Shown: in pieces, positions 357 through 11,601 of the stretch
How positions within the stretch are numbered: the stretch's first letter is position 1
Layout: each line of letters opens with the position of its first letter
Origin: Anaerolineales bacterium
Lineage (GTDB): Bacteria; Chloroflexota; Anaerolineae; Anaerolineales; DRKV01
DNA: 11,601 nt
Assembly: GCA_034435695.1 (NCBI GenBank)
Contig: DAOTWV010000247.1
Coordinates: 1 to 11,601 of the forward strand
Direction of reading: 5' to 3'
Notes under the pieces: model-generated
Database searches by the model: none
What the model was told of the DNA's origin: nothing
The model's input: the letters and a program-made list of their open reading frames with translations, nothing else
Position numbers and translations under genes: made by a program

Positions 357-423
357 CCATAGTGTTCCATTCCCCTGTTGCCGCGGGCAGCAGGCATTTG
401 TGGTTCCCAATTCTGGAGGCACT

Positions 424-2415
424 ATGTCACCCATCACTTTCACCCTCTTGAGCCTGACGGGGGTCATCGTTCTGTTCTTCCTGAGCGGCATCCGCTACAT
501 CCCCAACAACCGCATCGGGATTGTGGAAAAACGCTGGAGCAGCAAAGGTTCTGTTCAGTCCGGCCTGATAGCCCTGAACGGCGAGGCCGGCTATCAGCCG
601 CAGGTATTGCGCGGCGGCCTGCACTACCTCTTCCCCATCCAATACGCTGTGCACATCGCCCCACTGGTCACCATCCCGCAGGGAAAAATCGGATACGTCT
701 TTGCCCGTGATGGGCGTCCGCTTGCCCCCACGCAAACCCTGGCTTCCAACGAAAAGGCCAACGACTTCGAAGACGTGGTGGCCTTCCTGCAAAACGGGGG
801 ACAAAAAGGCCCGCAGCGCCGCATCCTGCGTGAAGGCACCTACGCCATCAACCTGATGCAGTTCGTGGTCATCACCGAAGACAAAATCTACTCCCTGCCT
901 CTCAGCAAGGAAGACAAAGCCGTCATCACGAGTATGGCTGCAAGCATCGCCAACCGAAACGGCTTTACCCCGGTGGTCATCAAGGACACCGATGACCTGG
1001 TGGGCATCGTGACCGTCCACGACGGGCCTTCCCTGCCCCAGGGGGAAATCATCGCCCCTGTGGTCGGCGATACCCCTGAAAACAGCGATACGTACCACAA
1101 CAACTTCCAGGAACCCGACCATTTCCTGCGCGCCGGCGGCTTCCGCGGGCGGCAGTTGCAGGTACTCGTCGAGGGCACCTACTACATCAACCGCCTGTTC
1201 GCCACCGTGGAGATGATTCCCAAGACCACCATTCCGGTTGGCTTCGTGGGCGTGGTCATCTTCTACACCGGCGAAAGCGGACAGGACATCTCCGGCGAGG
1301 AATACCGCCACGGCGAACTGGTAAACACCGGCCAGCGCGGCGTGTGGAGCGAACCGCTCCTGCCCGGCAAATACGCCTTCAACACCTACGCCGGGAAAGT
1401 CGTCATGGTGCCCACCACCAACATCATCCTCAAATGGATTCGCAGCGAAGTCGGCACCCACGGCTACGATGAAAACCTGGCCGAAGTCACCCTCATCACT
1501 AAAGACGCCTTCGAACCCTCCCTGCCGCTCTCTGTCGTGGTACACATTGACTACAAGAAAGCCCCGCTGGTGGTACAACGCTTCGGCGATGTCAAACGTC
1601 TGGTAGAACAAACCCTCGACCCGATGGTCTCGGCCTACTTCAAGAACATCGGCCAGACGCGCACCCTCATCGAGTTGCTGCAAGACCGCAGTGAAATCCA
1701 GCGCATTGCCGGCGAAGAAATGAAAGAGCGTTTTGGACATTACAACCTGGAACTCGAAGAAGTGCTCATCGGCACCCCATCGGCCAGCGAGGGCGACAAA
1801 CAAATCGAGGTCATCCTCAACCAGTTGCGCGCCCGTCAGATTGCCGAAGAACAGGTCGAAACCTACAGCCGGCAAGAGAAGGCCGCCGTCAAGGAACGTG
1901 AACTGCGCGAAGCCCAGGCGCGTGCCGAACAGCAGAAGAACATCACCGAATCCGAACTGAGCATCACCGTGCAGACCAACCAGGGTAAAGCGGAATACCA
2001 GCGCGCCGTGCAGAAGGCCGCCGAAATCCGCACGCTGGCGGATGCCGAGGCCGAAAAAGTGGCCCGCGTGGGTATCGCCCAGGCGCTGGCGACCGAAGAA
2101 CAGGTACGCGCCTACGGCGGCCCGCAATTCCAGGTCACCCAGCAGGTGCTCACCCGCTTCGCCGAAGCCATCCAGCAGGCCAAAGTGGACGTGGTGCCGC
2201 GCGTCATGGTCGGCGGCGGAGGCGAGACGGGCGGCAGCGCCAGCGGCAACCTGATGGAAGCCCTGCTCGCCATCCTGCTTTCCGAGCGCATGGGCGCCGT
2301 CTTGGGAGAAACCCAGCCGCCATCCCCGGAGGCCGAAGCGTTGCGCGCCCAAATCCGCGAGCGGCTCAAAAATGCCCCCGACAAGCCCACCCCGCCCAAG
2401 AAATCACAATCCTGA
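424..2415 (+). CDS. Flotillin-like SPFH/band-7 family membrane-scaffold protein (YqiK/FloT-like)
   Basis: An N-terminal TM helix (ITFTLLSLTGVIVLFFLSGI) is followed by YIPNNRIGIVEKRW and an SPFH-type domain. A long Ala/Glu/Gln-rich coiled-coil flotillin-repeat region follows (EQVETYSRQEKAAVKERELREAQARAEQQK...AEIRTLADAEAEKVARVGIAQALATEE). The C-terminus is Gly/Pro-rich. The start is placed at ATG 424 (GGAGG 415-419, 4-nt spacer) rather than the track's 400. Stop is TGA 2413-2415. Confidence 0.85.
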   Translation: MSPITFTLLSLTGVIVLFFLSGIRYIPNNRIGIVEKRWSSKGSVQSGLIALNGEAGYQPQVLRGGLHYLFPIQYAVHIAPLVTIPQGKIGYVFARDGRPLAPTQTLASNEKANDFEDVVAFLQNGGQKGPQRRILREGTYAINLMQFVVITEDKIYSLPLSKEDKAVITSMAASIANRNGFTPVVIKDTDDLVGIVTVHDGPSLPQGEIIAPVVGDTPENSDTYHNNFQEPDHFLRAGGFRGRQLQVLVEGTYYINRLFATVEMIPKTTIPVGFVGVVIFYTGESGQDISGEEYRHGELVNTGQRGVWSEPLLPGKYAFNTYAGKVVMVPTTNIILKWIRSEVGTHGYDENLAEVTLITKDAFEPSLPLSVVVHIDYKKAPLVVQRFGDVKRLVEQTLDPMVSAYFKNIGQTRTLIELLQDRSEIQRIAGEEMKERFGHYNLELEEVLIGTPSASEGDKQIEVILNQLRARQIAEEQVETYSRQEKAAVKERELREAQARAEQQKNITESELSITVQTNQGKAEYQRAVQKAAEIRTLADAEAEKVARVGIAQALATEEQVRAYGGPQFQVTQQVLTRFAEAIQQAKVDVVPRVMVGGGGETGGSASGNLMEALLAILLSERMGAVLGETQPPSPEAEALRAQIRERLKNAPDKPTPPKKSQS

Positions 2416-3332: not shown

Positions 3333-3650
3333 ATGGACGCGCTCAACCCCATCATCCACCAGCCTACCCGGCTGCGCATCATGGCTTCCCTGGCTGCCCT
3401 GGATGGAGATGTCTCGCTGGAATTCACCACCCTGCGGGACCTGCTCAAACTGACGGATGGCAACCTGGGGACGCACCTGCGCACCCTCGAAGAGGCCGGT
3501 TATATCCAGGTGGAAAAAACCTTCGTGGGGCGCAAGCCGTGTACCTTCATTTCCTTGACCGAAGAGGGTCGCGCGGCCTTTCAAAGCCACGTGCGCGCCC
3601 TCGAGGCTCTGATTTATGCCGGAGGAAAAAGCGATGAACGCAGTGATTGA
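3333..3650 (+). CDS. Small winged-helix-turn-helix transcriptional regulator (MarR/ArsR-like, HTH_34-type wHTH)
   Basis: 105 aa. The wHTH signature is HQPTRLRIMASLAAL...LEFTTLRDLLKLTDGNLGTHLRTLEEAGYIQVEKTFVGRKPCTFISLTEEGRAAFQSHVRALEAL (recognition helix, then a beta-hairpin wing GRKP). It is tightly coupled to the upstream membrane protein and is overlapped by the downstream ABC ATPase. Confidence 0.75.
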   Translation: MDALNPIIHQPTRLRIMASLAALDGDVSLEFTTLRDLLKLTDGNLGTHLRTLEEAGYIQVEKTFVGRKPCTFISLTEEGRAAFQSHVRALEALIYAGGKSDERSD

Positions 3651-4551
3651 AGTACGCGACCTGCACAAATCCTATGGAACGGTGCAGGCCGTGCGCGGGG
3701 TTTCGTTTACCGTGCAGGCCGGAGAAATTTTCGGCATGGTCGGCCCCAATGGGGCGGGAAAGACCACCACCATCGAGTGCCTGGAAGGGCTGCGCCGCCC
3801 TGACAGCGGGGATGTGCGCGTCCTGGGGCAGGTTCCCCACCAGGCCGGACGCGCCTTGCAGCAGCGCATCGGGGTGCAGTTGCAGCAATCGGCGCTGCCG
3901 CCCCGCCTCAAGGTGTGGGAAGCCTGCGACCTGTTCGCTTCCTTTTATCAGAAGCACGTCCCCTGGCAGCCCCTGCTGGAGCAATTCGGGCTGGCCGAAA
4001 AGCGCAACGCCTTTGTGGGCAAACTTTCCGGCGGGCAGCAGCAACGCCTGCACATCGTGCTGGCGCTGCTCAACGACCCGGAGGTGGTGTTTCTGGACGA
4101 ACTGACCACCGGCCTGGACCCGCAGGCGCGGCATGCCATGTGGGACATGGTACGCGATATCCGCTCACGCGGCAAGACGGTTTTCCTGACCACGCACTTC
4201 ATGGAAGAGGCCGAGCGTCTGTGCGACCGCGTGGCGGTGATGGATGCCGGGAAAATCATCGCGCTGGATACCCCCGAAGGGCTGACGCGTGCCCTCGAAG
4301 GGCAGGTCTCCATCGTGTGCACCGTTTCCGGGGGGGACGTTCCCCTGGAGGAATTACGCGCCCTCAGGGGGGTAGAACAGGTCACCCTGAGTGGGGCGCG
4401 GCTGGAAATCACGGGGCGCGGGGATGCCCTGCTCCCGCAGGTGGTTGCCCTGCTCAGCGCCCGTGGTCTGACCATTCGAGATATGCGCACCGAGCAGCCG
4501 GGACTGGAAGACGCCTTCCTGGCATTGACCGGCCACCAGGTGCGCGTCTGA
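3634..4551 (+). CDS. ABC transporter ATP-binding protein (ABC-2/DrrA-like exporter ATPase with C-terminal extension)
   Basis: Walker A GPNGAGKTT, signature LSGGQQQR and Walker B VVFLDE are all present. The start is placed at ATG 3634 (GGAGG 3621-3625, 8-nt spacer), giving MNAVIEVRDLHKSYG. The alternative in-frame ATG at 3616 lacks an SD. It overlaps the regulator 3' end by 17 nt. Confidence 0.9.
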   Translation: MNAVIEVRDLHKSYGTVQAVRGVSFTVQAGEIFGMVGPNGAGKTTTIECLEGLRRPDSGDVRVLGQVPHQAGRALQQRIGVQLQQSALPPRLKVWEACDLFASFYQKHVPWQPLLEQFGLAEKRNAFVGKLSGGQQQRLHIVLALLNDPEVVFLDELTTGLDPQARHAMWDMVRDIRSRGKTVFLTTHFMEEAERLCDRVAVMDAGKIIALDTPEGLTRALEGQVSIVCTVSGGDVPLEELRALRGVEQVTLSGARLEITGRGDALLPQVVALLSARGLTIRDMRTEQPGLEDAFLALTGHQVRV

Positions 4552-4563
4552 GGAGGCTCTGCC

Positions 4564-5316
4564 ATGCAATCTTTCGGAAAACTTACCCTGGTGAACCTGA
4601 AATTGTACGTGCGCGAACCGGTGGCGTTCTTTTTCACCGTCGCCTACGCGCCCCTGATGCTGATGCTGTTCGGTGCGATTTACGGCAACCAGCCGGAGGC
4701 CATCTTCGGCGGGCGCGGCACGATGGACGTTTCCGTGCCGGCCTATGTGGCGCTGATTGTGGTCACGGTGGGGCTGATGAGCGTGCCGATTGCCACCGCC
4801 AACGCCCGCGAATACGGCGTGCTGCGCCGCTTTCGGGCTACGCCGCTCTCCCCGGCCGTCTACATGGCCGCCGAAGTGCTGGAGTTTTACCTGATGGCGC
4901 TGGTGGGCGTCATCCTGCTGGTGCTGGTGGGCAAACTGGCCTATGACGTGCGCATCGATGGCAATCTGTTCTCCCTGTGGCTGGGATTCACCCTGGGCGC
5001 GCTCTCCACGTTTGCGATGGGCTACCTGCTGGCCGCCCTGATGCCCTCGGCGCGCATGGCGCAAACGGTCGGGATGGTGCTGGCCTTCCCCATGATGTTC
5101 CTCTCCGGCGCGACCATCCCCCTGCAGGTGATGCCGGAGAGCATCCAGCACCTGGCGCAGTGGATTCCGCTGACGTATGTGGTACAGTTGATGCAGGGGT
5201 TGTGGTTTGGGGATGCCTGGGGGACGCTGACGAAGCCGGTGGTGGTGCTGGCGGCGGTGGGCGTGGTGTGCGCCCTGCTGACGGCGCGCTTCTTCCGCTG
5301 GGATTCTGAGGGGTGA
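4564..5316 (+). CDS. ABC-2 family transporter permease (6 TM)
   Basis: 250-aa hydrophobic protein with the ABC-2 permease topology. AGGAGG at 4551-4556 sits 7 nt upstream of the ATG and 12 nt after the ATPase stop. Confidence 0.85.
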   Translation: MQSFGKLTLVNLKLYVREPVAFFFTVAYAPLMLMLFGAIYGNQPEAIFGGRGTMDVSVPAYVALIVVTVGLMSVPIATANAREYGVLRRFRATPLSPAVYMAAEVLEFYLMALVGVILLVLVGKLAYDVRIDGNLFSLWLGFTLGALSTFAMGYLLAALMPSARMAQTVGMVLAFPMMFLSGATIPLQVMPESIQHLAQWIPLTYVVQLMQGLWFGDAWGTLTKPVVVLAAVGVVCALLTARFFRWDSEG

Positions 5317-5344: not shown

Positions 5345-5385
5345 CGCCGCCGGGTAGCGCAATGCCATCCGGCGGCGCTGCTTTC
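5345..5385 (+). terminator. Candidate terminator/hairpin after the ABC operon (9-bp GC stem, 15-nt loop, weak CTGCTTTC tail)
   Basis: CGCCGCCGG (5345-5353) pairs with CCGGCGGCG (5369-5377), followed by ctgctttc. The T-tract is poor, so it is weaker than the flotillin terminator. A second small hairpin GGGGTG..CACCCC (5310-5326) overlaps the permease stop codon. Confidence 0.35.
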
Positions 5386-5503: not shown

Positions 5504-6448
5504 ATGCGCAGTTTGCAGAAATTCTTAGCGGTGTGTATGTTGTTCCTCAGTTTACTGTTGACGGGGTGCGGTTCTTCCGTAAACGTAGCCGTGGATGGCG
5601 CGGTGCGCCTGCATGACTTGTCGCCGCTGCCCACCCCGCAGAGTACGGATGTGGTGCCCATTCGGGTGGCCGTGGCGGCGGTCATTTCTCCCAAAGGGAC
5701 GGTGGAAAGTTATTCGCCGCTGTTTTCGTACCTGTCGGAGGCCACCGGGCGGCCGGTGGAAATCGTGCAGCGGCGCACCTATGCGGAGGTCAACGACCTG
5801 GTGCGCACCGGTGAAGTAGACCTGGCCTTCGTGTGTACCAGTTCCTACCTGGTGGGGCGGCGGGATTTTGGCATGCAATTGCTGGTTGCCCCCCAGGTGC
5901 AGGGAAGGACGACCTACCAGGCCTACCTGATTGTCCCGGCGGACAGCCCGGCGCAATCGCTGGAAGATTTGCGCGGCGGCGTATTTGCCTTTACGGACCC
6001 GATTTCGTTTTCCGGGCGTATGGTGCCGACCTACTGGCTGCAACAAATGGGCGAAGTCCCGGAAACCTTTTTCAAGCGTACCTTCTTCACCTATAGCCAC
6101 GATGACGCCATCCACGCCGTGGTGCGCCACCTGGCCGATGGGGCTTCGATTGATTCACTGGTCTTCGATTTTGCCGTGCAGCGCGACCCCTCGCTGCTGG
6201 AGCAGGTGCGCATCATCCGCAAATCGGAACCGTACGGCATTCCCCCCGTGGTGGTAGGCCCATCCGTGCGCCCTCAAATTCGCTCGCTGCTGCAGGAAAT
6301 CCTGCTGGGCATGGCAGACGACCCCCAGGGACAGGCCGCCTTGCAAGCGCTGGGCTATGACCGCTTCGTGATGGTGGATGAGGCGCTTTACCAGAGCGCC
6401 ATGCAGGTGCAGGATGCCCTGCACTTCGAGTTGCAGGAAACTCCATGA
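5504..6448 (+). CDS. PhnD-family (phosphonate/oxyanion-binding-like) periplasmic substrate-binding lipoprotein, a sensor-associated 'X' protein of the AioX/ArrX type
   Basis: GGAGG at 5495-5499 precedes the start. The signal peptide MRSLQKFLAVCMLFLSLLLTGC ends in a lipobox (L-T-G-C). The mature region has a PhnD/SsuA-like type-2 periplasmic binding protein fold (VAVAAVISPKG...YSPLFSYLSEATGRPVEIV...VDLAFVCTSSY...QAYLIVPADSP...FAFTDPISFSGRMVPTYWL). It sits directly upstream of, and is translationally coupled to, a sensor kinase. Confidence 0.75.
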   Translation: MRSLQKFLAVCMLFLSLLLTGCGSSVNVAVDGAVRLHDLSPLPTPQSTDVVPIRVAVAAVISPKGTVESYSPLFSYLSEATGRPVEIVQRRTYAEVNDLVRTGEVDLAFVCTSSYLVGRRDFGMQLLVAPQVQGRTTYQAYLIVPADSPAQSLEDLRGGVFAFTDPISFSGRMVPTYWLQQMGEVPETFFKRTFFTYSHDDAIHAVVRHLADGASIDSLVFDFAVQRDPSLLEQVRIIRKSEPYGIPPVVVGPSVRPQIRSLLQEILLGMADDPQGQAALQALGYDRFVMVDEALYQSAMQVQDALHFELQETP

Positions 6449-7881
6449 CGGAAGAAACCCGCACCCAACGTTTTTATAACGCCCTCTGGCGCTGGATAGG
6501 CAGCGTCAACGTACGCACCAAGATTTTTGGCATCGTGCTTGGCAGCACCGTGATGCTCAGTTTGAGTTTCATCGTGCAGGTACGCGTGACCATGTTTCGC
6601 TACCTGGAAGCCCAGGCCCGTGAGGAAGGTATCTCCATTGCCCACGATGTGGCCGCCCGCTCTACCGATTTGATTCTCATCAACGACCTGTACGGCCTGG
6701 ACCGTCTGCTGCAGGATACCGAAAACAACTTTCGGGATGTGCGCTACGCCTTCATCGTGGCCGATAACGGGGATGTGCTGGCGCACACCTTTTCGGGAGG
6801 TTTCCCGCTGGATTTACTCTCGGCAAATACGGTGACGCCTTTGGGGGATGAGCACATCGCCGTGCTGCAAACCGAAGAGGGCCTGGTGTGGGACGTCGCC
6901 ATGCCCATCTTCGAGGGACGCCTGGGAACGGCGCGCGTTGGCATCTCCGACCGTTTTTTGCAGGAAACCCTGGGGATGCTGACCTCTCAAATGGGGTTGA
7001 CGGTCGTCCTGGTGCTGGTCTTCAGTCTGCTGGCGGCCACATTCCTGACCTGGGTGCTGACGCGCCCCATCCTGGCGCTGGTGGAGGCCACCGAGCGCAT
7101 CGGGCAGGGCGATTTTTCGGTGCGCGTCACCCCCTGGGCGGACGATGAAATCGGCGACCTGGCGGTTGCTTTCAATCAGATGAGCGCCGACTTGTCCCGC
7201 CTGGACGAAATCCGCCGCGAGCGCGAAGACCTGCGCAGGCAACTGCTGGAAGGCATCATCAACGCCCAGGAAGAAGAACGCCGCCGGATTGCGCGCGAAC
7301 TGCACGACAGCACCTCGCAAAGCCTGACTTCCCTCAAGGTGGGGCTGCGCATGTTGGAAGCACAGGTGGATGAGTCCCTCCGTCCCCACGTGCTGGACCT
7401 GCACCGGGTGGCCGGCGAGACTCTCGATAACGTGCACGCCCTGGCCGTGCAATTGCGCCCCATCATGCTGGATGACCTCGGTCTGGAAGCGGCCCTCACC
7501 CGCCTGATTGAAGAATGGCAGGCGCGTTACCGCATCCCGGTGGATGCCCTCATCCGTCTGGGAGAGGAGCGCCTGAAAAGCGAAATCGAGGTAGTCTTGT
7601 ACCGCATTACGCAAGAAGGCCTGACCAACATCGCCCGTCACGCCCAGGCCGGACAGGTCAGCATCTTGATTGAGCGCCGCCCTGACGAGGTATTGGAAAT
7701 CATCGAGGATGACGGCCGCGGTTTCGACCGTTCCGGCGTACACCAGGGCAAACACCTCGGTCTGCTGGGGATGCGCGAACGCGTCGAACTGGTGGGCGGC
7801 CAGTTTTCCGTCGAGACCGCACCGGGCGAGGGCACCAGCATCTTCATTCGTATTCCGCTCAGCGGGAATGGAACGCCATGA
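6445..7881 (+). CDS. Sensor histidine kinase (2 TM, about 135-aa periplasmic loop, HAMP, HisKA_3, HATPase_c; NarX/DegS-type)
   Basis: The ATG overlaps the binding-protein stop (ATGA at 6445-6448). TM1 is about residues 26-47 and TM2 about 183-205. HAMP is LTRPILALVEATERIGQGDFSVRVTPWADDEIGDLAVAFNQMSADL. The HisKA_3 H-box is EEERRRIARELHDSTSQSLTSLKVGL. The ATPase G-boxes are DDGRGF and GLLGMRERVELVGG. Confidence 0.9.
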   Translation: MTEETRTQRFYNALWRWIGSVNVRTKIFGIVLGSTVMLSLSFIVQVRVTMFRYLEAQAREEGISIAHDVAARSTDLILINDLYGLDRLLQDTENNFRDVRYAFIVADNGDVLAHTFSGGFPLDLLSANTVTPLGDEHIAVLQTEEGLVWDVAMPIFEGRLGTARVGISDRFLQETLGMLTSQMGLTVVLVLVFSLLAATFLTWVLTRPILALVEATERIGQGDFSVRVTPWADDEIGDLAVAFNQMSADLSRLDEIRREREDLRRQLLEGIINAQEEERRRIARELHDSTSQSLTSLKVGLRMLEAQVDESLRPHVLDLHRVAGETLDNVHALAVQLRPIMLDDLGLEAALTRLIEEWQARYRIPVDALIRLGEERLKSEIEVVLYRITQEGLTNIARHAQAGQVSILIERRPDEVLEIIEDDGRGFDRSGVHQGKHLGLLGMRERVELVGGQFSVETAPGEGTSIFIRIPLSGNGTP

Positions 7882-8531
7882 ACAAAATTCGTGTTTTTCT
7901 GGCCGATGACCATGCCGTATTGCGCAGCGGGCTGCGCCTGCTGCTCTCGCAATCGGACAAAATCGAGGTGGTGGGGGAAGCCGAAAGCGGCCTGGATACC
8001 ATCCGGCTGGTGGAGGCGTTGCAGCCCGATTTGATTTTGCTGGATTTATCCATGCCCCGTCTGGGCGGGCTGGATGCGCTGCCCACCATACGGCGCGTCG
8101 CCCCCCAGGCGCGCATTCTGGTGCTGACGATGCACAGCGACCCGCAGTATTTGCAGCAGGCCATCCGCAACGGCGCGGCCGGCTACCTGCTCAAGAAGGC
8201 CGCCGATAGCGAACTGCTGGCCGCCATCGAAGCGGTCATGCGCGGCGAAGTGTACGTGCATTCCTCGATGACGCGCGCCCTGCTCGAAGACCTGCTTCCC
8301 ACGCAGAAGGAACAGGATGAAGACGCCTGGGCGAACCTGAGCCGGCGCGAGCAAAATGTGCTGCGGCTGGTGGCGCTGGGGCATACCGGCGCGGAAATCG
8401 CCGACATGCTTTCCATCAGCCAGAAGACGGTGGATACCTACCGGGCGCGCGGTATGGAAAAACTGGGGCTGAAGACCCGCGCCGCCCTGGTGCGGTTTGC
8501 CCTCGAACGCGGCATCCTGACTTCCGATTGA
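7878..8531 (+). CDS. NarL/FixJ-family response regulator (REC + LuxR-type HTH)
   Basis: The ATG overlaps the kinase stop (ATGA at 7878-7881). The receiver domain has DD (ADDH), phospho-Asp (LILLDLSMP) and Lys (LLKK). The C-terminal LuxR HTH is LSRREQNVLRLVALGHTGAEIADMLSISQKTVDTYRARGMEKLG. Confidence 0.9.
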   Translation: MNKIRVFLADDHAVLRSGLRLLLSQSDKIEVVGEAESGLDTIRLVEALQPDLILLDLSMPRLGGLDALPTIRRVAPQARILVLTMHSDPQYLQQAIRNGAAGYLLKKAADSELLAAIEAVMRGEVYVHSSMTRALLEDLLPTQKEQDEDAWANLSRREQNVLRLVALGHTGAEIADMLSISQKTVDTYRARGMEKLGLKTRAALVRFALERGILTSD

Positions 8532-8656
8532 GCCTTTTCGTATGCGGTTCGCAAAGGGGGAAAGGTCTCCACTAGCCAGTGGGGAACAACGGAAAATCTT
8601 TCCGTACCAGGGCAGGGTACCCTCGGAACGCGGGCGTATGCCGTGCTCCATGGTAT

Positions 8657-8702
8657 CCGCAGATTACGCGGATTTTTTCTGTGCTATCGGCGTAATCTGC
8701 GG
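8657..8702. promoter_or_regulatory. Perfect 13-bp inverted repeat CCGCAGATTACGC-N20-GCGTAATCTGCGG in the regulator-to-molybdoenzyme intergenic region
   Basis: The arms are 8657-8669 and 8690-8702; the spacer ggattttttctgtgctatcg contains a T6 run. No T-tract follows either arm. It lies 126 bp after the regulator stop and 254 bp before the B-subunit start. Confidence 0.6.
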
Positions 8703-8879
8703 GTGAATTGGCGCATATTTGGAATTGCTGGGGGAAATGGGAAGGGGGGAGAAACCTTTTGGGAAGAATGTCACACACTGGGGCGCAACATGTCATAGGG
8801 CGGTAGGGGAAATCCCTACAAAGCGCGGGGAGGACATCGGGTTTTTCCCGATAAACAAAACACGGGCAATCGTCTATCC

Positions 8880-8885
8880 TATAAA
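8880..8885 (+). promoter_or_regulatory. Weak candidate -10 (TATAAA) upstream of the molybdoenzyme operon
   Basis: TATAAA at 8880-8885 is about 70 nt upstream of ATG 8956. There is no convincing -35, and activator-dependent promoters often lack one. Confidence 0.2.
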
Positions 8886-8955
8886 CGCTCAAAACCGGCC
8901 GAGTCCTGGCCGTCGCTCCCATTTTTCCCAATCCTTTTAGAGGAGGATGTTTGTT

Positions 8956-9696
8956 ATGGCTGATGTACTCACCCCGGTCAGCGCGCTCGAGAGAATGCGA
9001 GAAGACTTGAAGCGTGCTCTGGCCAAACCCGTGAACGAACGCCGCTGGGTGATGGTCATTGACCTGCGCAAATGCGTCGGGTGCAATGCATGTACCATCT
9101 CCTGCAATGCCGAAAATCGTTTGCCACCTGGTGTGGTCTATCGCCCGGTGCTCGATATGGAAGTCGGCACGTATCCGAACGTACGTCGTGCCTTCCTGCC
9201 GCGCCCCTGCATGCAGTGCGATGAACCGCCCTGCACGCCGGTGTGCCCGGTGAACGCCACCTGGAAGCGCGATGACGGCATCGTGGTAATCGATTACGAC
9301 AAGTGTATCGGTTGCCGCTATTGCATTGCTGCCTGCCCCTACAACGCCCGTACCTTTGACAAGGGCCTGAATTACACCGACGATACCACCACCAACGAAA
9401 ACTTCGTCAGCCTGGATGCCGTGGCTTATGAAGAAGCACCGGCCTTCGATTACGGCAAGGAATGGCCGCGTGATGGTGGTTCGCCGATTGGCAACGCTCG
9501 CAAGTGCCACTTCTGCCTGCATCGCCTGGAAGCCGGAATGCTGCCGGCCTGCACCACCACCTGCATCGGCGAGGCTACTTACTTCGGTGACGCCAACGAC
9601 CCCGACTCGCTGGTTTCCGAACTGATTGCCAGTCCCAATGTGATGCGTCTCAAGGAAGAATTGGGGACTAAGCCGCGCGTTTACTACCTTGTGTAA
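8956..9696 (+). CDS. Four-cluster 4Fe-4S ferredoxin-type electron-transfer subunit of a complex iron-sulfur molybdoenzyme (TtrB/PsrB/NrfC-like)
   Basis: The start is placed at ATG 8956 (AGGAGG 8941-8946, 9-nt spacer), because the track's ATG 8947 directly abuts the SD. Four Cys clusters are present: [37 protein letters not shown] and CHFC...CTTTC. There is no Tat signal. The 246-aa size matches TtrB. Confidence 0.85.
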
Positions 9697-9712
9697 GGAC
9701 CGGAGGCTCATA

Positions 9713-10840
9713 ATGAACGGAAAGAATTCCCTGTCGAAAGTGTTTTGGGCCATCACGGCGGTTGCCTTCGTGATTGGCCTGTATGGTTTGTATGACCGCT
9801 TTGCCAACGGCCACATGCACACGGCCTACGGTTCTTACGTTCCGTGGGGGCTGTGGATTGCTGCGTACACCATGCTGGTGGGCGTGTCGGCAGGTGCGTT
9901 TGCCGCTTCGGCGGTGGCGATTACCACCCGCAAGGAAAAGTGGGAACGCTTCGCCAAATTTGGCCTGCTGGTAGCGCTGGGCGCTTTTGCCGGCGGCATG
10001 CTCAACGTACTGCTCGACCTGGGGCACCCGGAACGTCTGCTGCGGCTGTACTTCGCCAACAACCCCTTCTCGATGATGGGGCTGATGGCCTGGTTCTACC
10101 TGCTCTACGGCCTGCTGCTGGTCTTCATGATCTGGCGCATCTGGAGCCAGGGCGTGGATGACCTGATGGTCAAACTCGGCTATCTGGCCGTGCCCTTTGC
10201 GGTGCTCTTCGCCGGTGCGGAAGGTGCGCTCTTCGGTGTGGTCGGCGCCCGCCCCCTGTGGGAATCTGGCCTGACCCCCATCCTCTTCCTGCTGGAAGGC
10301 GCCATTGGCGGTCTGGCCGCGGCTACGCTGGCCAACTGGATTGCCGGTGCGCTGGAAGATGACCAGTATCAGCGCCTGGGCCGCATTCTGCTCGGTCTGC
10401 TGGCCGTGCTGGTAATCTTCGAATGGGCGGAATACTCCACCGGTCTGTATGCCGGCATCCCGGCCAAGGCTGAAACCCTGCGCAACATCTTGTTTGGCCC
10501 CTACTGGTGGGTCTTCTGGCTGGTGCATCTGGCCGCCGGTGTGGTGCTGCCGATTTTGCTGCTGGCCTTCCAGCCGAAGAACCAGGGCATGATTACGCTT
10601 TCGGCCGCCCTGGTACTCTTCACCGCAATCACTACCAAATTGAACCTGGTCATCCCGGCGCTGGCTCAACCGGAAATCGAAGGGCTGGAAAACGCCTATC
10701 ATGGTCCGGGGCTGTCGTTCACCTACTTCCCGACCATGTCGGAATGGATGCTGTTCATCTGGACGGTTTCCCTTGCTGCCCTGATTTTCCTGGCCGGTTA
10801 TCAGTTCCTGCCCCAAATGCTCAAGAAAGAGGTGAAATAA
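9713..10840 (+). CDS. NrfD/PsrC-family integral membrane quinol-interacting anchor subunit (TtrC/PsrC-like)
   Basis: The start is at ATG 9713 (GGAGG 9702-9706, 6-nt spacer); the track start 9689 precedes the upstream stop. It is a 375-aa polytopic membrane protein of about 8-9 TM ([39 protein letters not shown], ...), the architecture typical of PsrC/NrfD/TtrC. Confidence 0.85.
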
Positions 10841-10841
10841 C

Positions 10842-11601
10842 ATGGCCGAGAAACAAACGACCCAACCCGAAAACTGCGGTCTTTCGCGCCGTGATTTTCT
10901 GAAAATGTCTGCCGTGGTCGGCGGTACGGCAGCCTTTGTTGGCAGCCTGCCGCAGGTCAAGAAAGCGATGGCGGCCCAGACGGCGCAGAGCAGTTACCCG
11001 CTGGCCAACCCGGAAAACGTACTGTACAGCATCTGCCTGAACTGCCACAACGCCTGCACCATCAAAGCGCATATTCTGGACGGCACGCTGGTCAAAATCG
11101 ACGGCAACCCCTACAGCCCGCAGAACCTGCAGCCGCACATCGCTGAAAGCACCTCTCCGGCGGAAGCCGCGCACGCCGATGCGCCGGTCTGCCCCAAGGG
11201 CCAGGCGGGCGTGCAGATTGCCTACGACCCCTACCGCATCCGCAAGGTGCTCAAGCGCGCCGGCAAGCGCGGTGAGAACAAATGGGTTACCATCGAATGG
11301 GACCAGTTCATCGACGAAGTGGTCAACGGCGGCGACCTGTTTGGTGAAGGGCATGTGGACGGTTTCAAAGATGTCTGGAAACTGCGCGACCCCGACCTGA
11401 GCAAGGAACTGGGCGCCGATGCGGCTGCCGTCGCCAGCGGTGACATGACTCTGGACGAATTCAAGTCCAAGCACGCCGCGCACCTCGACCTGCTGATTGA
11501 CCCCGACCACCCCGACCTGGGGCCGGTCAACAACCAGTTCGTCTTCCAGGGCGGGCGCGTGGAGCATGGCCGCAAGGAATTCATCAAGCGCTGGGTGTAC
11601 T
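10842..11601 (+). CDS. Molybdopterin (bis-MGD) oxidoreductase catalytic subunit, N-terminal 253 aa only (TtrA/PsrA/PhsA/ArrA-like), with Tat signal
   Basis: GAGGTG at 10828-10833 lies 8 nt before ATG 10842, 1 nt after the membrane-subunit stop. The twin-arginine motif is SRRDFLKMSAVVGGTAAFVGS...AMA. The N-terminal FeS (FS0) motif is C-x2-C-x3-C (CLNCHNAC) with a fourth Cys at PVCPKG. The frame is open to the window end. It is absent from the ORF track because no stop is in the window. Confidence 0.85.
   Translation, partial: MAEKQTTQPENCGLSRRDFLKMSAVVGGTAAFVGSLPQVKKAMAAQTAQSSYPLANPENVLYSICLNCHNACTIKAHILDGTLVKIDGNPYSPQNLQPHIAESTSPAEAAHADAPVCPKGQAGVQIAYDPYRIRKVLKRAGKRGENKWVTIEWDQFIDEVVNGGDLFGEGHVDGFKDVWKLRDPDLSKELGADAAAVASGDMTLDEFKSKHAAHLDLLIDPDHPDLGPVNNQFVFQGGRVEHGRKEFIKRWVY

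Follow-up and report, generated by a model that had tools for sequence, protein, structure and literature searches.

The locus analyzed here, carried by a window of 11,601 nucleotides from the genome of an uncultured member of the Anaerolineae (Chloroflexota), probably encodes an arsenate sensor of the ArrXSR type that drives a Ttr-like respiratory arsenate reductase. Its six genes, X, S, R, B, C, and A, all lie on the plus strand (Table 1), where a previous sequence-only reading had also placed them. That reading had described a split X-S-R sensor of the AioXSR/ArrXSR type beside a B-C-A CISM operon of the Ttr lineage, and Pfam domains and synteny bear this out.

Gene order, operator, and related loci

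ATGA overlaps join X to S and S to R. The public contig L001 (GCA_964565745.1) is identical, and its gene calls agree with the sizes proposed for B and C, although alternative starts would extend B to 249 aa (position 8947) and C to 383 aa (TTG at 9689). Downstream of A, the longer contig encodes a monoheme cytochrome c, TatA, an FmdE-domain protein, a ThiS/MoaD-like protein, and a TauE permease. The TauE (sulfite-exporter family) and ThiS neighbors are a possible hint of sulfur chemistry. There are no ars genes within the window itself.

Table 1. Features of the X-S-R and B-C-A locus (positions in the window)
Feature	Position	Strand	Description	Basis
X	5504..6448	+	ArrX-type periplasmic-binding-protein sensor, lipoprotein, 314 aa	
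S	6445..7881	+	membrane histidine kinase, 478 aa	Pfam, TM helices, synteny
R	7878..8531	+	NarL/FixJ-type response regulator, 217 aa	Pfam REC + GerE HTH
Terminator-like hairpin + T-run	8655..8683	+	3' of R	consensus scan
Operator site 1 (putative)	8802..8820	no strand	19-bp palindrome GGTAGGGGAAATCCCTACA	
Operator site 2 (putative)	8835..8853	no strand	palindrome CATCGGGTTTTTCCCGATA	
B	8956..9696	+	four-cluster FeS electron-transfer subunit, 246 aa	
C	9713..10840	+	NrfD/PsrC-type quinol-interacting membrane anchor, 375 aa	
A, N-terminal part	10842..11601	+	Tat-exported Mo-bisPGD catalytic subunit	
Gly-Gly-Arg (G237 G238 R239) of A	11550..11558	+		aligned on ArrA (R/K)GRY motif

A one-genome-per-species collection contained 399 matching stretches, the best 80 of which, nearly all from Chloroflexota, were taken as related loci. 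Among these best 80 of 399, S came directly after X in all 70 loci with room for it, R followed S in 60 of 60, and a CISM operon was found in the flanks of 19 of the 22 loci for which 6 kb or more was available on each side, so that chance juxtaposition of X-S-R and B-C-A is ruled out. X pairs with kinases rather than with an ABC importer, and the module is syntenic with CISM operons.

The family consensus of operator site 1, TGTMRGG-N5-CCYKACA, has its sole match within the window between R and B. With at most one mismatch and at most 450 bp upstream of a Ttr-like B gene, it was present in 30 of 37 loci, against ca. 0.5 expected at the chance rate of 33.5 hits per 1.03 Mb. Genes for ArrA-type and 861-aa-type enzymes have it upstream as well, as do separate FmdE operons. 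Site 2 lies 33 bp downstream of site 1, and a second element (..GGACTTTTCCCGCTA..) is kept at an equal offset in a site-1-anchored alignment of 35 loci. Both sites are similar to tcaggtttttccctga, a putative ArrR site that precedes arrA in Chrysiogenes (PMC5908839). The constant succession of X, S, and R and the operator before B argue for a coupling of the sensor to the enzyme. The hairpin and T-run 3' of R weakly suggest that XSR and BCA are transcribed separately, in a consensus scan whose shuffles yield 0.7 such sites.

The module is accompanied by at least four types of catalytic subunit. In one locus (L016), an orthologous XSR (X 59% identical) and a matching operator directly precede an ArrA-type enzyme, which scores 1281 bits over its full length on the ArrA model and has the RGRY motif. 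In another (L078), XSR and operator stand beside a 954-aa enzyme lacking the Gly-Arg pair discussed below, and they are also found beside an 861-aa enzyme, so the module may serve several substrates.

The sensor module

X had been described as a PhnD-like protein anchored by a lipobox and coupled to the kinase by the ATGA overlap, and it is indeed a strong match to Phosphonate-bd (PF12974, 228.6 bits) with the lipobox L-T-G-C22 at its N terminus (MRSLQKFLAVCMLFLSLLLTGC), whose C22 is almost invariant across homologues. Among solved structures, X matches ArrX best (6x6b, 217 bits), followed by AioX (ca. 136 to 139 bits), PtxB/HtxB (ca. 63 to 66), and E. coli PhnD (43). X and ArrX of Chrysiogenes arsenatis share 46% identity over 243 aa, and the AlphaFold model of X (pLDDT 89.3) has ArrX as top structural match (TM 0.93). 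The seven pocket residues of the AioX/ArxX/ArrX subfamily, taken from PMC5908839, are all found in X (Y93, C111, Y138, S168, S170, H199, and D217, equivalent to Y88, C106, Y131, S161, S163, H192, and D210 of AioX), among them the Cys absent from PhnD. Across 81 homologues, six of the positions are invariant, and the remaining one (170) is occupied by S or T. X and all its Anaerolineae homologues have the short polar loop of ArrX, while arsenite binders carry there a three-residue hydrophobic insertion (VFL in AioX of NT-26, AFL in ArxX of Sulfuricella). In the tree, they form the sister group of ArrX, separate from AioX plus ArxX. Arsenate (Kd 1 uM) and phosphate (150 uM) are ligands of ArrX, and tetrathionate, thiosulfate, selenate, antimonite, molybdate, and sulfate are not (PMC5908839). 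However, AioX, ArxX, and ArrX differ in ligand despite their common pocket (PMC5908839), so pocket conservation does not fix selectivity; and since the phylogeny of XSR follows that of the organisms (PMC5908839), the nearness of X to ArrX is partly taxonomic.

S has the Pfam domains sCache_3_2 (residues 51 to 174), HAMP, HisKA_3, and HATPase_c, and the extracytoplasmic loop attributed to it was recovered as ca. 140 aa between two hydrophobic helices (about 27 to 45 and 187 to 205). R consists of Response_reg and GerE/LuxR domains, so that its assignment to the NarL/LuxR type stands. The same assignment made for ArxR does not, since ArxR, like AioR, is of the AtoC/sigma-54 type (PMC5908839), as confirmed on the Sulfuricella arxXSR. 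Among ArxR, AioR, and ArrR, only the ArrR of Chrysiogenes and Firmicutes is NarL/FixJ-like (PMC5908839), and R shares its type with the Chrysiogenes protein. The relationship of X to ArrX, its pocket and short loop, the known ligands of ArrX, the type of R, and the arrA-like operator together point to a sensor of the arsenate type.

The intact pocket, with the counterpart of the As(III)-bonding Cys of AioX, would also suit an arsenite-responsive system, in which the Ttr-like enzyme would oxidize arsenite under anaerobic or microaerobic conditions (Arx-like direction) or work both ways, and electrons would exit via the small cytochrome c whose gene lies downstream of A. A membrane-anchored monoheme cytochrome c does follow A in the subclade of the window (L001, L037, L050, and L061), Arr and Arx are closely related enzymes of opposite direction, and many Anaerolineae have a facultative lifestyle. 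Nevertheless, most loci lack the cytochrome c gene, the loop of X and its grouping with ArrX set it apart from the two arsenite binders, R is not of the ArxR/AioR type, the orthologous XSR of L016 is paired with an enzyme bearing the ArrA-type RGRY, and the characterized Ttr-like arsenic enzymes are all reductases. We regard an arsenite system as quite improbable.

The B, C, and A subunits

The window ends after 253 codons of A, and the full-length protein (ca. 1036 aa) was rebuilt from the L001 contig. A has the Tat motif SRRDFLK at residue 15, as expected from its earlier description as a Tat-type subunit, and a CxxCxxxC...C Fe4S4 motif (C65/C68/C72/C117). On family models it scores 560.7 bits for TtrA (cutoff 1750; a true TtrA scores 2076), 225 for PhsA, and 141 for ArrA, and it is not Fdh-like. 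An NJ tree with Klebsiella TtrA and the Pseudomonas BYT-5 and Azospirillum homologues for comparison, rather than the characterized PSR-1, OR-1, PAE1265, and SrdA sequences, places it in an Anaerolineae clade outside the true-TtrA clade that these three form. From these scores and this position, A is judged to belong to the TtrA/SrdA lineage but not to be TtrA.

The GGR of A aligns on the RGR of ArrA, at R165 of the Shewanella ANA-3 enzyme (phmmer to ArrA 6cz7; MAFFT). GR is invariant in 32 of 32 Anaerolineae Ttr-like A subunits and absent, in MAFFT alignments, from the true Klebsiella TtrA and the Pseudomonas BYT-5 and Azospirillum homologues. A Gly-Arg pair at this position is reported to be common to all arsenic enzymes and missing from true Ttr (PMC12949373, 2026), a rule drawn from the alignment of that one paper. 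ArrA differs in having Tyr166 and Lys198, where A has Val and His. The plasmid-borne B-C-A of Citrobacter arsenatis, located within an arsR-arsDABC-arsH island, also has QSGR, and its active-site stretch HTNICELSHHIA resembles HTTICEQSHHIA of A. This likeness, the GGR at ArrA R165, and the separation of A from TtrA argue for the arsenate branch.

B is a Fer4_11 four-cluster ferredoxin whose top NCBIfam matches are TtrB (196 bits, cutoff 416), DsrO (186), and ArrB (167). Its N terminus lacks a signal peptide or Tat leader, whereas true TtrB is defined by an N-terminal Tat leader. C matches NrfD (PF03916, 111 bits), and a crude hydropathy count gives it ca. 10 hydrophobic helices.

The sequence-only reading had compared the operon and its sensor, apart from the split, with ttrBCA/ttrSR. 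Taken as a true TtrBCA, the enzyme would reduce tetrathionate to thiosulfate, and TtrS would be divided into a kinase and a tetrathionate-binding X. The B-C-A order, the size of A, TtrA and TtrB as the top models for A and B, and the TauE and ThiS-family genes downstream are in keeping with this, as is the PhnD-like domain claimed for TtrS itself, which we recovered in an annotated Klebsiella TtrS (PF12974, 108.7 bits). It is nonetheless very unlikely. Both subunits fall far short of their cutoffs, A stands outside the true-TtrA clade and has the GR pair, and B is leaderless. X is barely alignable with the TtrS sensor domain (24.6 bits) and shares none of the seven pocket residues with it, TtrS has HisKA and S has HisKA_3, and R is 28% identical to true TtrR (71.7 bits on the TtrR model, cutoff 290). 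Tetrathionate is no ligand of ArrX and is not reduced by a Ttr-like arsenate reductase (PMC12949373). Thus, a split TtrSR was rejected as the identity of XSR, given the 46% identity of X to ArrX, and A was rejected as TtrA after failing the equivalog test.

Arsenate as the probable substrate, and known systems

The substrate had been considered unreadable from the sequence, but it can be narrowed considerably toward arsenate. Besides L016, the context is provided by arsenic-resistance-type genes, which recur in the flanks of 15 of the best 80 of 399 loci: ACR3 (396 bits, above the equivalog cutoff of 283), ArsR/SmtB with a CVC motif, ArsP_1, an ArsC-like LMW phosphatase, and an ArsE-type thioredoxin. 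Another oxyanion could be sensed and reduced (selenate, as by SrdBCA of Bacillus selenatarsenatis, antimonate, or tellurate), the likeness to ArrX then reflecting common ancestry. The pocket alone does not set selectivity, the module is paired with several enzyme types, X weakly matches a putative selenate-binding protein model (69 bits, cutoff 250), and five related loci contain a YqeB-like gene (selenium-dependent Moco maturation). Yet the recurring neighbors are arsenic specific, the GR pair agrees with arsenic enzymes, one orthologous XSR adjoins an ArrA-type enzyme, and ArrX binds neither selenate nor antimonite, molybdate, or sulfate. Moreover, a Ttr/Srd-like complex of Limisphaera has been assigned to arsenate, the strain growing on arsenate and not on selenate. 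We consider such an oxyanion unlikely.

In the arsenate system that we favor, X, lipid-anchored at the outer face of the cytoplasmic membrane, would bind arsenate in its Cys-containing PhnD-fold pocket and, once liganded, contact the sCache loop of S. Autophosphorylation via HAMP and HisKA_3 and phosphotransfer to R would follow, and R~P on the tandem palindromes 100 to 150 bp upstream of B would activate B-C-A. A would be exported by Tat with B hitchhiking on it, both docking on C, and menaquinol would supply electrons, which C and then the FeS clusters of B would relay to the Mo-bisPGD site of A for the extracellular reduction of As(V) to As(III).

The arrangement had been thought unusual, a view that does not fit the 399 matching stretches or the literature. 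This kind of system is already known: an “ArrTSR” module precedes a ttr-like locus in the genome of Melioribacter roseus (PMC5492636). Arsenate reductases of the Ttr-like kind are established (PMC12949373, PMC11462812), with examples in Anaeromyxobacter PSR-1, Geobacter OR-1, and Pyrobaculum. Chloroflexota ttrA transcripts have been found in arsenic-releasing paddy soil.

Gene content of the window and synteny of the related loci

The window (11.6 kb, about 60% G+C) contains eleven consecutive genes on the plus strand, the last six of which code for a binding protein (X), a histidine kinase (S), a response regulator (R), an FeS subunit (B), an NrfD anchor (C) and a molybdopterin catalytic subunit (A). 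ATGA overlaps are present at X/S and at S/R. The sequence-only reading had described here a split X-S-R sensor beside a B-C-A operon, and this six-gene layout was borne out in every detail; the gene content, domains, overlaps and B-C-A order thus confirm that observation (see the table). The winged-helix gene upstream of the ABC ATPase was considered as an ArsR regulator and rejected, being of the HTH_34 type with 26 bits on the ArsR/SmtB model (cutoff 55), and it was excluded from the ars counts. The stretch also has a GC-rich hairpin at 5345-5377, and the longest antisense ORFs of this high-GC DNA (e.g., 427-2352, minus strand) are shadows of the real genes. No RNA family was above threshold in an Rfam scan of the window.

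Features of the window and variant catalytic operons beside orthologous X-S-R genes
Feature	Sequence	Positions	Strand	Remarks
SPFH/flotillin-like protein	Window	400-2415	+	671 aa; unrelated to X-S-R/B-C-A
Small membrane protein	Window	between SPFH and HTH_34 genes	+	unrelated to X-S-R/B-C-A
HTH_34 winged-helix regulator	Window	3333-3650	+	3' end overlaps ABC ATPase start by 35 nt
ABC ATPase	Window	3616-4551	+	unrelated to X-S-R/B-C-A
ABC-2 permease	Window	4564-5316	+	unrelated to X-S-R/B-C-A
X	Window	5504-6448	+	PF12974 Phosphonate-bd, 228.6 bits; lipobox ending at Cys22
S	Window	6445-7881	+	sCache_3_2, HAMP, HisKA_3, HATPase_c; two TM helices around ~140-aa outside loop
R	Window	7878-8531	+	217 aa; REC + GerE, without AAA+ domain
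Terminator-like hairpin with T-run	Window	8655-8683		~125 nt after R stop codon; between XSR and BCA units
Operator site 1, GGTAGGGGAAATCCCTACA	Window	8802-8820		palindrome; match to family consensus
Operator site 2, CATCGGGTTTTTCCCGATA	Window	8835-8853		33 bp downstream of site 1; conserved, family core ACTTTTCCCGCTA
B	Window	8956-9696	+	246 aa; four-cluster ferredoxin
C	Window	9713-10840	+	375 aa; NrfD
A	Window	from 10842	+	cut after 253 codons; Tat motif SRRDFLK, Fe4S4 motif
ArrA-type enzyme, then B and C	L016	7250-11687		RGRY motif; full-length, 1281 bits on ArrA model
861-aa PhsA-like enzyme	L003, L006, L014, L069			KGR motif; plus TorD-like chaperone
954-aa enzyme	L078	1069-5639		without GR; gene order B-A-TorD-C

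An identical public contig, L001 (Anaerolineae MAG GCA_964565745.1), extends the locus beyond the window. Gene A is broken there by a run of Ns (~10060-10190) with NMDWKGG duplicated on either side, and closing this gap with its duplicated ends gives a protein of ~1036 aa. Because of the same gap, the deposited calls contain a 513-aa antisense ORF that is spurious and only a 510-aa fragment of the C-terminal part. A selenocysteine or a frameshift in A was rejected since the interruption is an assembly gap of Ns and not a TGA codon. Behind A there are genes for a membrane-anchored monohaem cytochrome c, TatA, an FmdE-domain protein, a ThiS/MoaD-like protein and a TauE/SafE permease.

When one genome per species was scanned, 399 matching stretches were recovered, and the best 80 of these were used for all locus counts. 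Almost all of these 80 are Chloroflexota/Anaerolineae MAGs, with X proteins 56-71% identical to that of the window. S follows X in every one of the 70 loci with room for it, and R comes next in 60 of 60. Among the 22 loci whose flanks reach 6 kb or more on each side, 18 had a Ttr-like B-C-A operon and one another CISM operon. The operon is found downstream of R (the layout of the window) or, behind FmdE/TauE, upstream of X. Six of the best 80 loci carry a different catalytic subunit beside the orthologous XSR, and the 861-aa and 954-aa types among them matched no NCBIfam equivalog. In the X tree, the X proteins of these six loci are interspersed among the Ttr-linked ones; the window's closest relative among the best 80 of 399 (L003, 70% identical) is found beside the 861-aa type.

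The flanking ORFs of the best 80 of 399 loci were clustered. Genes for molybdenum cofactor synthesis (MoaA in 14 loci, MobA in 7) were found, together with ArsR/SmtB regulators with a CVC motif (11/80), ACR3 arsenite efflux proteins (6/80; 396 bits, cutoff 283), ArsP_1 permeases (5/80), ArsC-like LMW phosphatases (3/80) and ArsE-type thioredoxins (3/80). At least one arsenic-type gene was present in 15 of the 80 loci, many of which are short.

Other companions recur. FmdE is present in 43/80 and a TauE/SafE (TSUP) permease in 19/80 loci, whatever the type of catalytic subunit, and the pair occurs with or without ThiS/MoaD, TatA and monohaem cytochrome c (L001 12592-14063, L008, L040, L053, L059, L078 and most others). 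Where FmdE is not directly behind A, it comes with a separate copy of the 19-bp operator described below. A small CMD/AhpD-like gene lies directly upstream of X in nine loci (L015 9654-9980, L026 9636-9962, L044, L058, L061 and others) and a YqeB-like gene (selenium-dependent Moco maturation; 215 bits, cutoff 220) near XSR in five (L039 1-849 and four others); both are absent in the window.

The sensor protein X and its partners S and R

Both the Phosphonate-bd match and an AlphaFold model (pLDDT 89.3) identify X as a type II PBP with a PhnD-like fold. Among solved structures, the arsenate-binding ArrX from Chrysiogenes arsenatis matched best (217 bits, E 3e-63; 46% identity over 243 residues by BLASTP), followed by the arsenite-binding AioX (136-139 bits), by PtxB and HtxB, which bind phosphite and hypophosphite (about 63-66 bits), and by E. 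coli PhnD (43 bits). The modelling that the sequence-only reading had proposed gave the same ranking, ArrX being the best superposition (TM 0.93), then AioX (TM 0.91) and then PtxB/HtxB/PhnD. In the alignment, AioX and ArxX are 31% and 37% identical to X, respectively. The AioX/ArxX/ArrX subfamily is defined by the pocket Y88 C106 Y131 S161 S163 H192 D210 (AioX numbering), with a Cys absent from PhnD (Badilla et al., PMC5908839). The window X has Y93 C111 Y138 S168 S170 H199 D217, the same pattern as ArrX, ArxX and AioX, and across 81 X homologues six of these positions do not vary, with S or T at the seventh. A lone X-S-R of the Bacillus pseudomycoides plasmid L089 (8860-11829), located between transposases with no CISM enzyme nearby, has Ser at the Cys position (YSYSSHD).

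In the arsenite-binding proteins, a hydrophobic loop (Val56, Phe57, Leu58) closes on the ligand; it is longer than the loop of ArrX, which is polar (PMC5908839). We compared this region, which follows an (S/T)P motif, with native AioX (NT-26 plasmid, L090) and with the ArxX of Sulfuricella pSCD (L088), which adjoins arxB'ABCD and a sigma-54 regulator. The aligned loops read ISP---KGTVESY in the window X, ISP---LETMKGY in ArrX, TPVFLSNDLEVL in AioX and TPAFLHDQHVVL in ArxX. The three-residue insertion (VFL in AioX, AFL in ArxX) is found neither in ArrX nor in the window X or any aligned Anaerolineae X, and the X tree joins the Anaerolineae proteins to ArrX as its sister group, apart from AioX plus ArxX. 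Judged by loop, pocket and partner regulator, the best-supported assignment for X is thus a predicted member of the AioX/ArxX/ArrX subfamily of the ArrX, arsenate-binding type.

A PhnD for nutrient uptake was rejected as the identity of X, which scores 135 on the PhnD equivalog (cutoff 261). The sequence-only reading would have been undermined by X proteins accompanying ABC importers instead of kinases; the neighbours are S and R throughout, and no ABC importer adjoins X in any locus. The ABC-2 exporter upstream of X in the window is unrelated and not conserved with X across the loci.

The true TtrS was said to have a PhnD-like periplasmic domain itself, and this held for the annotated Klebsiella TtrS (PF12974, 108.7 bits). 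The match between X and this sensor domain is 24.6 bits, with none of the seven pocket residues in common. The phosphoacceptor domain is HisKA in TtrS and HisKA_3 in S, and R is 28% identical to TtrR, with 71.7 on the TtrR model against a cutoff of 290. By these comparisons the sensor appears clearly ArrXSR-like and not a split TtrSR. The regulator points in the same direction: ArrR of Chrysiogenes is NarL/FixJ-like, and the partner regulators in Chrysiogenes and Firmicutes are of the CitB/NarL/FixJ type (PMC5908839). R is of this type and lacks an AAA+ domain, as expected for the partner of an ArrX-type protein; the NT-26 counterpart gene is annotated AioR. The earlier statement that ArxR is NarL-type proved wrong, as both ArxR and AioR are of the AtoC/sigma-54 type (PMC5908839) and the Sulfuricella ArxR is annotated as sigma-54 dependent. 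We consider it very probable that XSR is a member of the AioX/ArrX family and controls the adjoining operon.

The catalytic subunit, the operator and the proposed mechanism

TtrA was the best NCBIfam model for A, colinear across profile positions 204-995. However, the tetrathionate reductase models to which the sequence-only reading had pointed (TIGR/NCBIfam) all gave values under their cutoffs: full-length A reached 560.7 on TtrA (cutoff 1750), with a Klebsiella true TtrA at 2075.6 bits as positive control, B reached 196 on TtrB (cutoff 416), and R also missed the TtrR cutoff. On the other equivalogs, A scored 225 (PhsA) and 141 (ArrA, cutoff 1600). A canonical ArrAB(C) identity was rejected on this ArrA value, on a motif GGRV in place of (R/K)GRY and on the B-C-A order in place of arrA-arrB.

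Comparators for A were retrieved by tblastn against plasmids. They included the ttrRS-ttrBCA clusters of Klebsiella and E. coli (A 31-34% identical to the window A), one Pseudomonas, one Azospirillum and several haloarchaeal homologues, and the B-C-A cluster of the Citrobacter arsenatis LY-1 plasmid treated below. A recent study found the Ttr-like arsenate reductases to be phylogenetically distinct from both true Ttr and Arr (2026, PMC12949373). Our neighbor-joining tree, which covered plasmid-borne true TtrA and other homologues, grouped true TtrA with the Pseudomonas and Azospirillum proteins and placed the window A apart from these, in an Anaerolineae clade made up of two subclades. The same study reported a Gly-Arg pair, the Arg being the arsenate ligand R165 of Shewanella ArrA, that is strict in Arr, Arx and Ttr-like arsenate reductases and absent in true Ttr (PMC12949373). 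In the window A, Q-G-G-R aligns on R-G-R-Y of ArrA (read on, GGRV). The pair is invariant in 32/32 Anaerolineae homologues of A, is found as QSGR in an enzyme from a Citrobacter ars island and is absent in Klebsiella TtrA (VT-NTS) and in the Pseudomonas and Azospirillum proteins. Two other arsenate-site residues of ArrA are changed in the window A (Tyr166 to Val, Lys198 to His). Its stretch around the Mo-ligand Cys, HTTICEQSHHIA, is like that of the Citrobacter enzyme (HTNICELSHHIA) and unlike that of TtrA (HGAYCGLAYRAG). A further mark of true Ttr is a Tat leader on A as well as on B (PMC12949373). In the window B, the first Cys cluster lies ~30 residues from the start, with no hydrophobic signal or Tat leader, while true TtrB has SKRQFLQRLGVLTAGASLVPLAQA. 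Helix counts by crude hydropathy, a method too coarse for this comparison, were about 10 for C and 8 for true TtrC. By the available criteria, A can be assigned to the Ttr lineage and is predicted not to be a tetrathionate reductase; we consider a true tetrathionate reductase, which gene order and best model might suggest, very improbable.

A 19-bp palindrome, TGTMRGG-N5-CCYKACA, is found within 450 bp upstream of the Ttr-like B in 30/37 loci, against a chance expectation of about 0.5 (33.5 hits per 1.03 Mb in shuffles). The same palindrome precedes the ArrA-type gene (L016), the 861-aa genes and stand-alone FmdE. Both sites of the window resemble tcaggtttttccctga, a FixJ-like putative site proposed upstream of Chrysiogenes arrA (PMC5908839). 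It should be noted that site 1, judged on the window alone, is not significant (at least one match in 71/200 shuffles), so the support for the operator comes from conservation across loci and not from window statistics. No consensus match to a sigma-70 promoter was found upstream of B, which is compatible with an activator-dependent promoter and no more. The terminator-like hairpin between XSR and BCA is part of a 30-nt imperfect inverted repeat (8644-8715, 77% complementary).

Taken together, the homologies, the states of pocket, loop and motifs, the synteny, the conserved operator and the arsenic genes nearby make it reasonably probable that the locus codes for a system of the ArrXSR type that responds to arsenate and activates a Ttr-like arsenate reductase, quinol-dependent and extracytoplasmic. 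Arsenate would bind to X, which would signal through the sCache loop of S; phosphorylated R would be the protein acting on the palindromes, and the window enzyme would reduce As(V). [quoted passage not shown] Slightly less likely still is that the enzyme works as an arsenite oxidase, or in both directions, through the cytochrome c encoded downstream of A; the loop of X is that of the arsenate binder. The Anaerolineae XSR and the 19-bp operator might form a fixed arsenate-sensing "socket" for at least four catalytic lineages (the two Ttr-like subclades, the ArrA type, the 861-aa KGR type and the 954-aa type), an idea that we regard as tentative and rather doubtful.

Significance and comparison with known systems

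Arsenic release to groundwater and rice paddies is usually tracked via arrA. Ttr-like enzymes, including those of Chloroflexota, have been suggested to dominate transcripts in some soils, and transcripts of ttrA from Chloroflexota have been found in paddy soil that releases arsenic, with doubt as to whether these "ttrA" genes reduce arsenate or tetrathionate (PMC11462812). The window locus and its ~80 relatives provide independent genomic evidence on this question, as Anaerolineae Ttr-like operons have an ArrX-type sensor instead of TtrSR, carry the arsenic-type Gly-Arg pair and are swapped with an ArrA-type enzyme under the same operator. The loop and pocket of X, the Gly-Arg pair and the operator can serve as markers when such loci are annotated; in public records they now carry the names phosphonate-binding protein, DsrO or "molybdopterin-dependent oxidoreductase." If all the enzymes of the socket act on arsenic, the regulon marks unrecognised lineages of respiratory arsenate reductases, and if the cytochrome-c-linked subclade of the window operates in the opposite direction, arsenite oxidases would gain a third kind, derived from Ttr. 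Either way, the numbers of arsenic-respiring Chloroflexota in aquifers and paddy soils would be seriously underestimated by arrA-based surveys. In the literature we found no account of how large this family is in Anaerolineae, of its conserved operator with two palindromes, of at least four catalytic lineages being exchanged under one XSR plus operator or of the constant FmdE/TauE companions. These features are worth specialist attention, yet they are extensions and not surprises.

The arrangement had been called unusual, and this did not hold. There are reports of Ttr-like respiratory arsenate reductases from Pyrobaculum aerophilum (PAE1265), Anaeromyxobacter sp. PSR-1 (WP_059435911.1) and Geobacter sp. 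OR-1 (WP_041969781.1), one has been proposed in Limisphaera, and in Melioribacter roseus an "ArrTSR" (binding protein, kinase and regulator) is located directly upstream of a ttr-like locus, beside ars genes (PMC5492636). Given these precedents, the window locus, which has the same three sensor components beside a Ttr-like operon as Melioribacter, extends a known kind to another phylum and is not an unusual hybrid. By published criteria its enzyme appears to be like those of PSR-1, OR-1 and PAE1265 (TtrA/SrdA lineage, outside the true-Ttr clade, Gly-Arg pair), differing in the phylum, in its own two-subclade Anaerolineae clade, in a B without Tat leader and in the conserved FmdE/TauE genes. 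SrdBCA, compared by description, has the same lineage and B-C-A order according to the literature.

The closest sensor is ArrXSR of Chrysiogenes arsenatis (ArrX PDB 6x6b/6xl2), also with a separate PhnD-fold protein, a membrane kinase, a NarL/FixJ-type regulator and an adjoining Mo-bisPGD enzyme. Besides its overall similarity to ArrX, the window X shares the identical seven-residue pocket and the same short loop, and in both systems the enzyme genes are preceded by similar palindromic operators of the GG-T5-CC form. Unlike in Chrysiogenes, the window enzyme is B-C-A, of the Ttr lineage and about 1036 aa long, and not arrAB (ArrA family about 850 aa); further differences are that X is a lipoprotein and that the host belongs to the Chloroflexota. 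AioXSR (Rhizobium NT-26) and ArxXSR (Sulfuricella/Alkalilimnicola type) have the three-component logic, binding-protein subfamily and pocket in common with the window; however, their X is an arsenite binder with the three-residue hydrophobic insertion in the loop, their R is of the sigma-54/AtoC type and their enzymes are Aio or Arx. The enterobacterial TtrRS-TtrBCA (Salmonella; the Klebsiella plasmid L084 was used here) is similar in B-C-A order, subunit sizes, adjoining two-component system, PhnD-fold module and LuxR-type regulator, but its HisKA kinase carries the PhnD-like domain in fused form, without the pocket residues, its A has no Gly-Arg pair and its TtrB has a Tat leader.

Finally, the Citrobacter arsenatis LY-1 plasmid (NZ_CP037863.1, L083) has a B-C-A cluster at 9566-15498 inside an arsR-arsDABC-arsH island, and the same type is present in such islands on 33 conjugative plasmids of E. 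coli and other enterobacteria. These genes are annotated only as [quoted passage not shown] and we found no characterisation of them in the literature. The Citrobacter A is like the window A (37-40% identical, QSGR, HTNICELSHHIA stretch, 663 on the TtrA model against the cutoff of 1750, TauE/SafE nearby), while the cluster differs in that it appears to be under the control of a divergent ArsR-type repressor instead of XSR and in that its B has a signal peptide. By its resemblance to the window enzyme, the Citrobacter-type B-C-A is a candidate plasmid-borne arsenate respiratory reductase.
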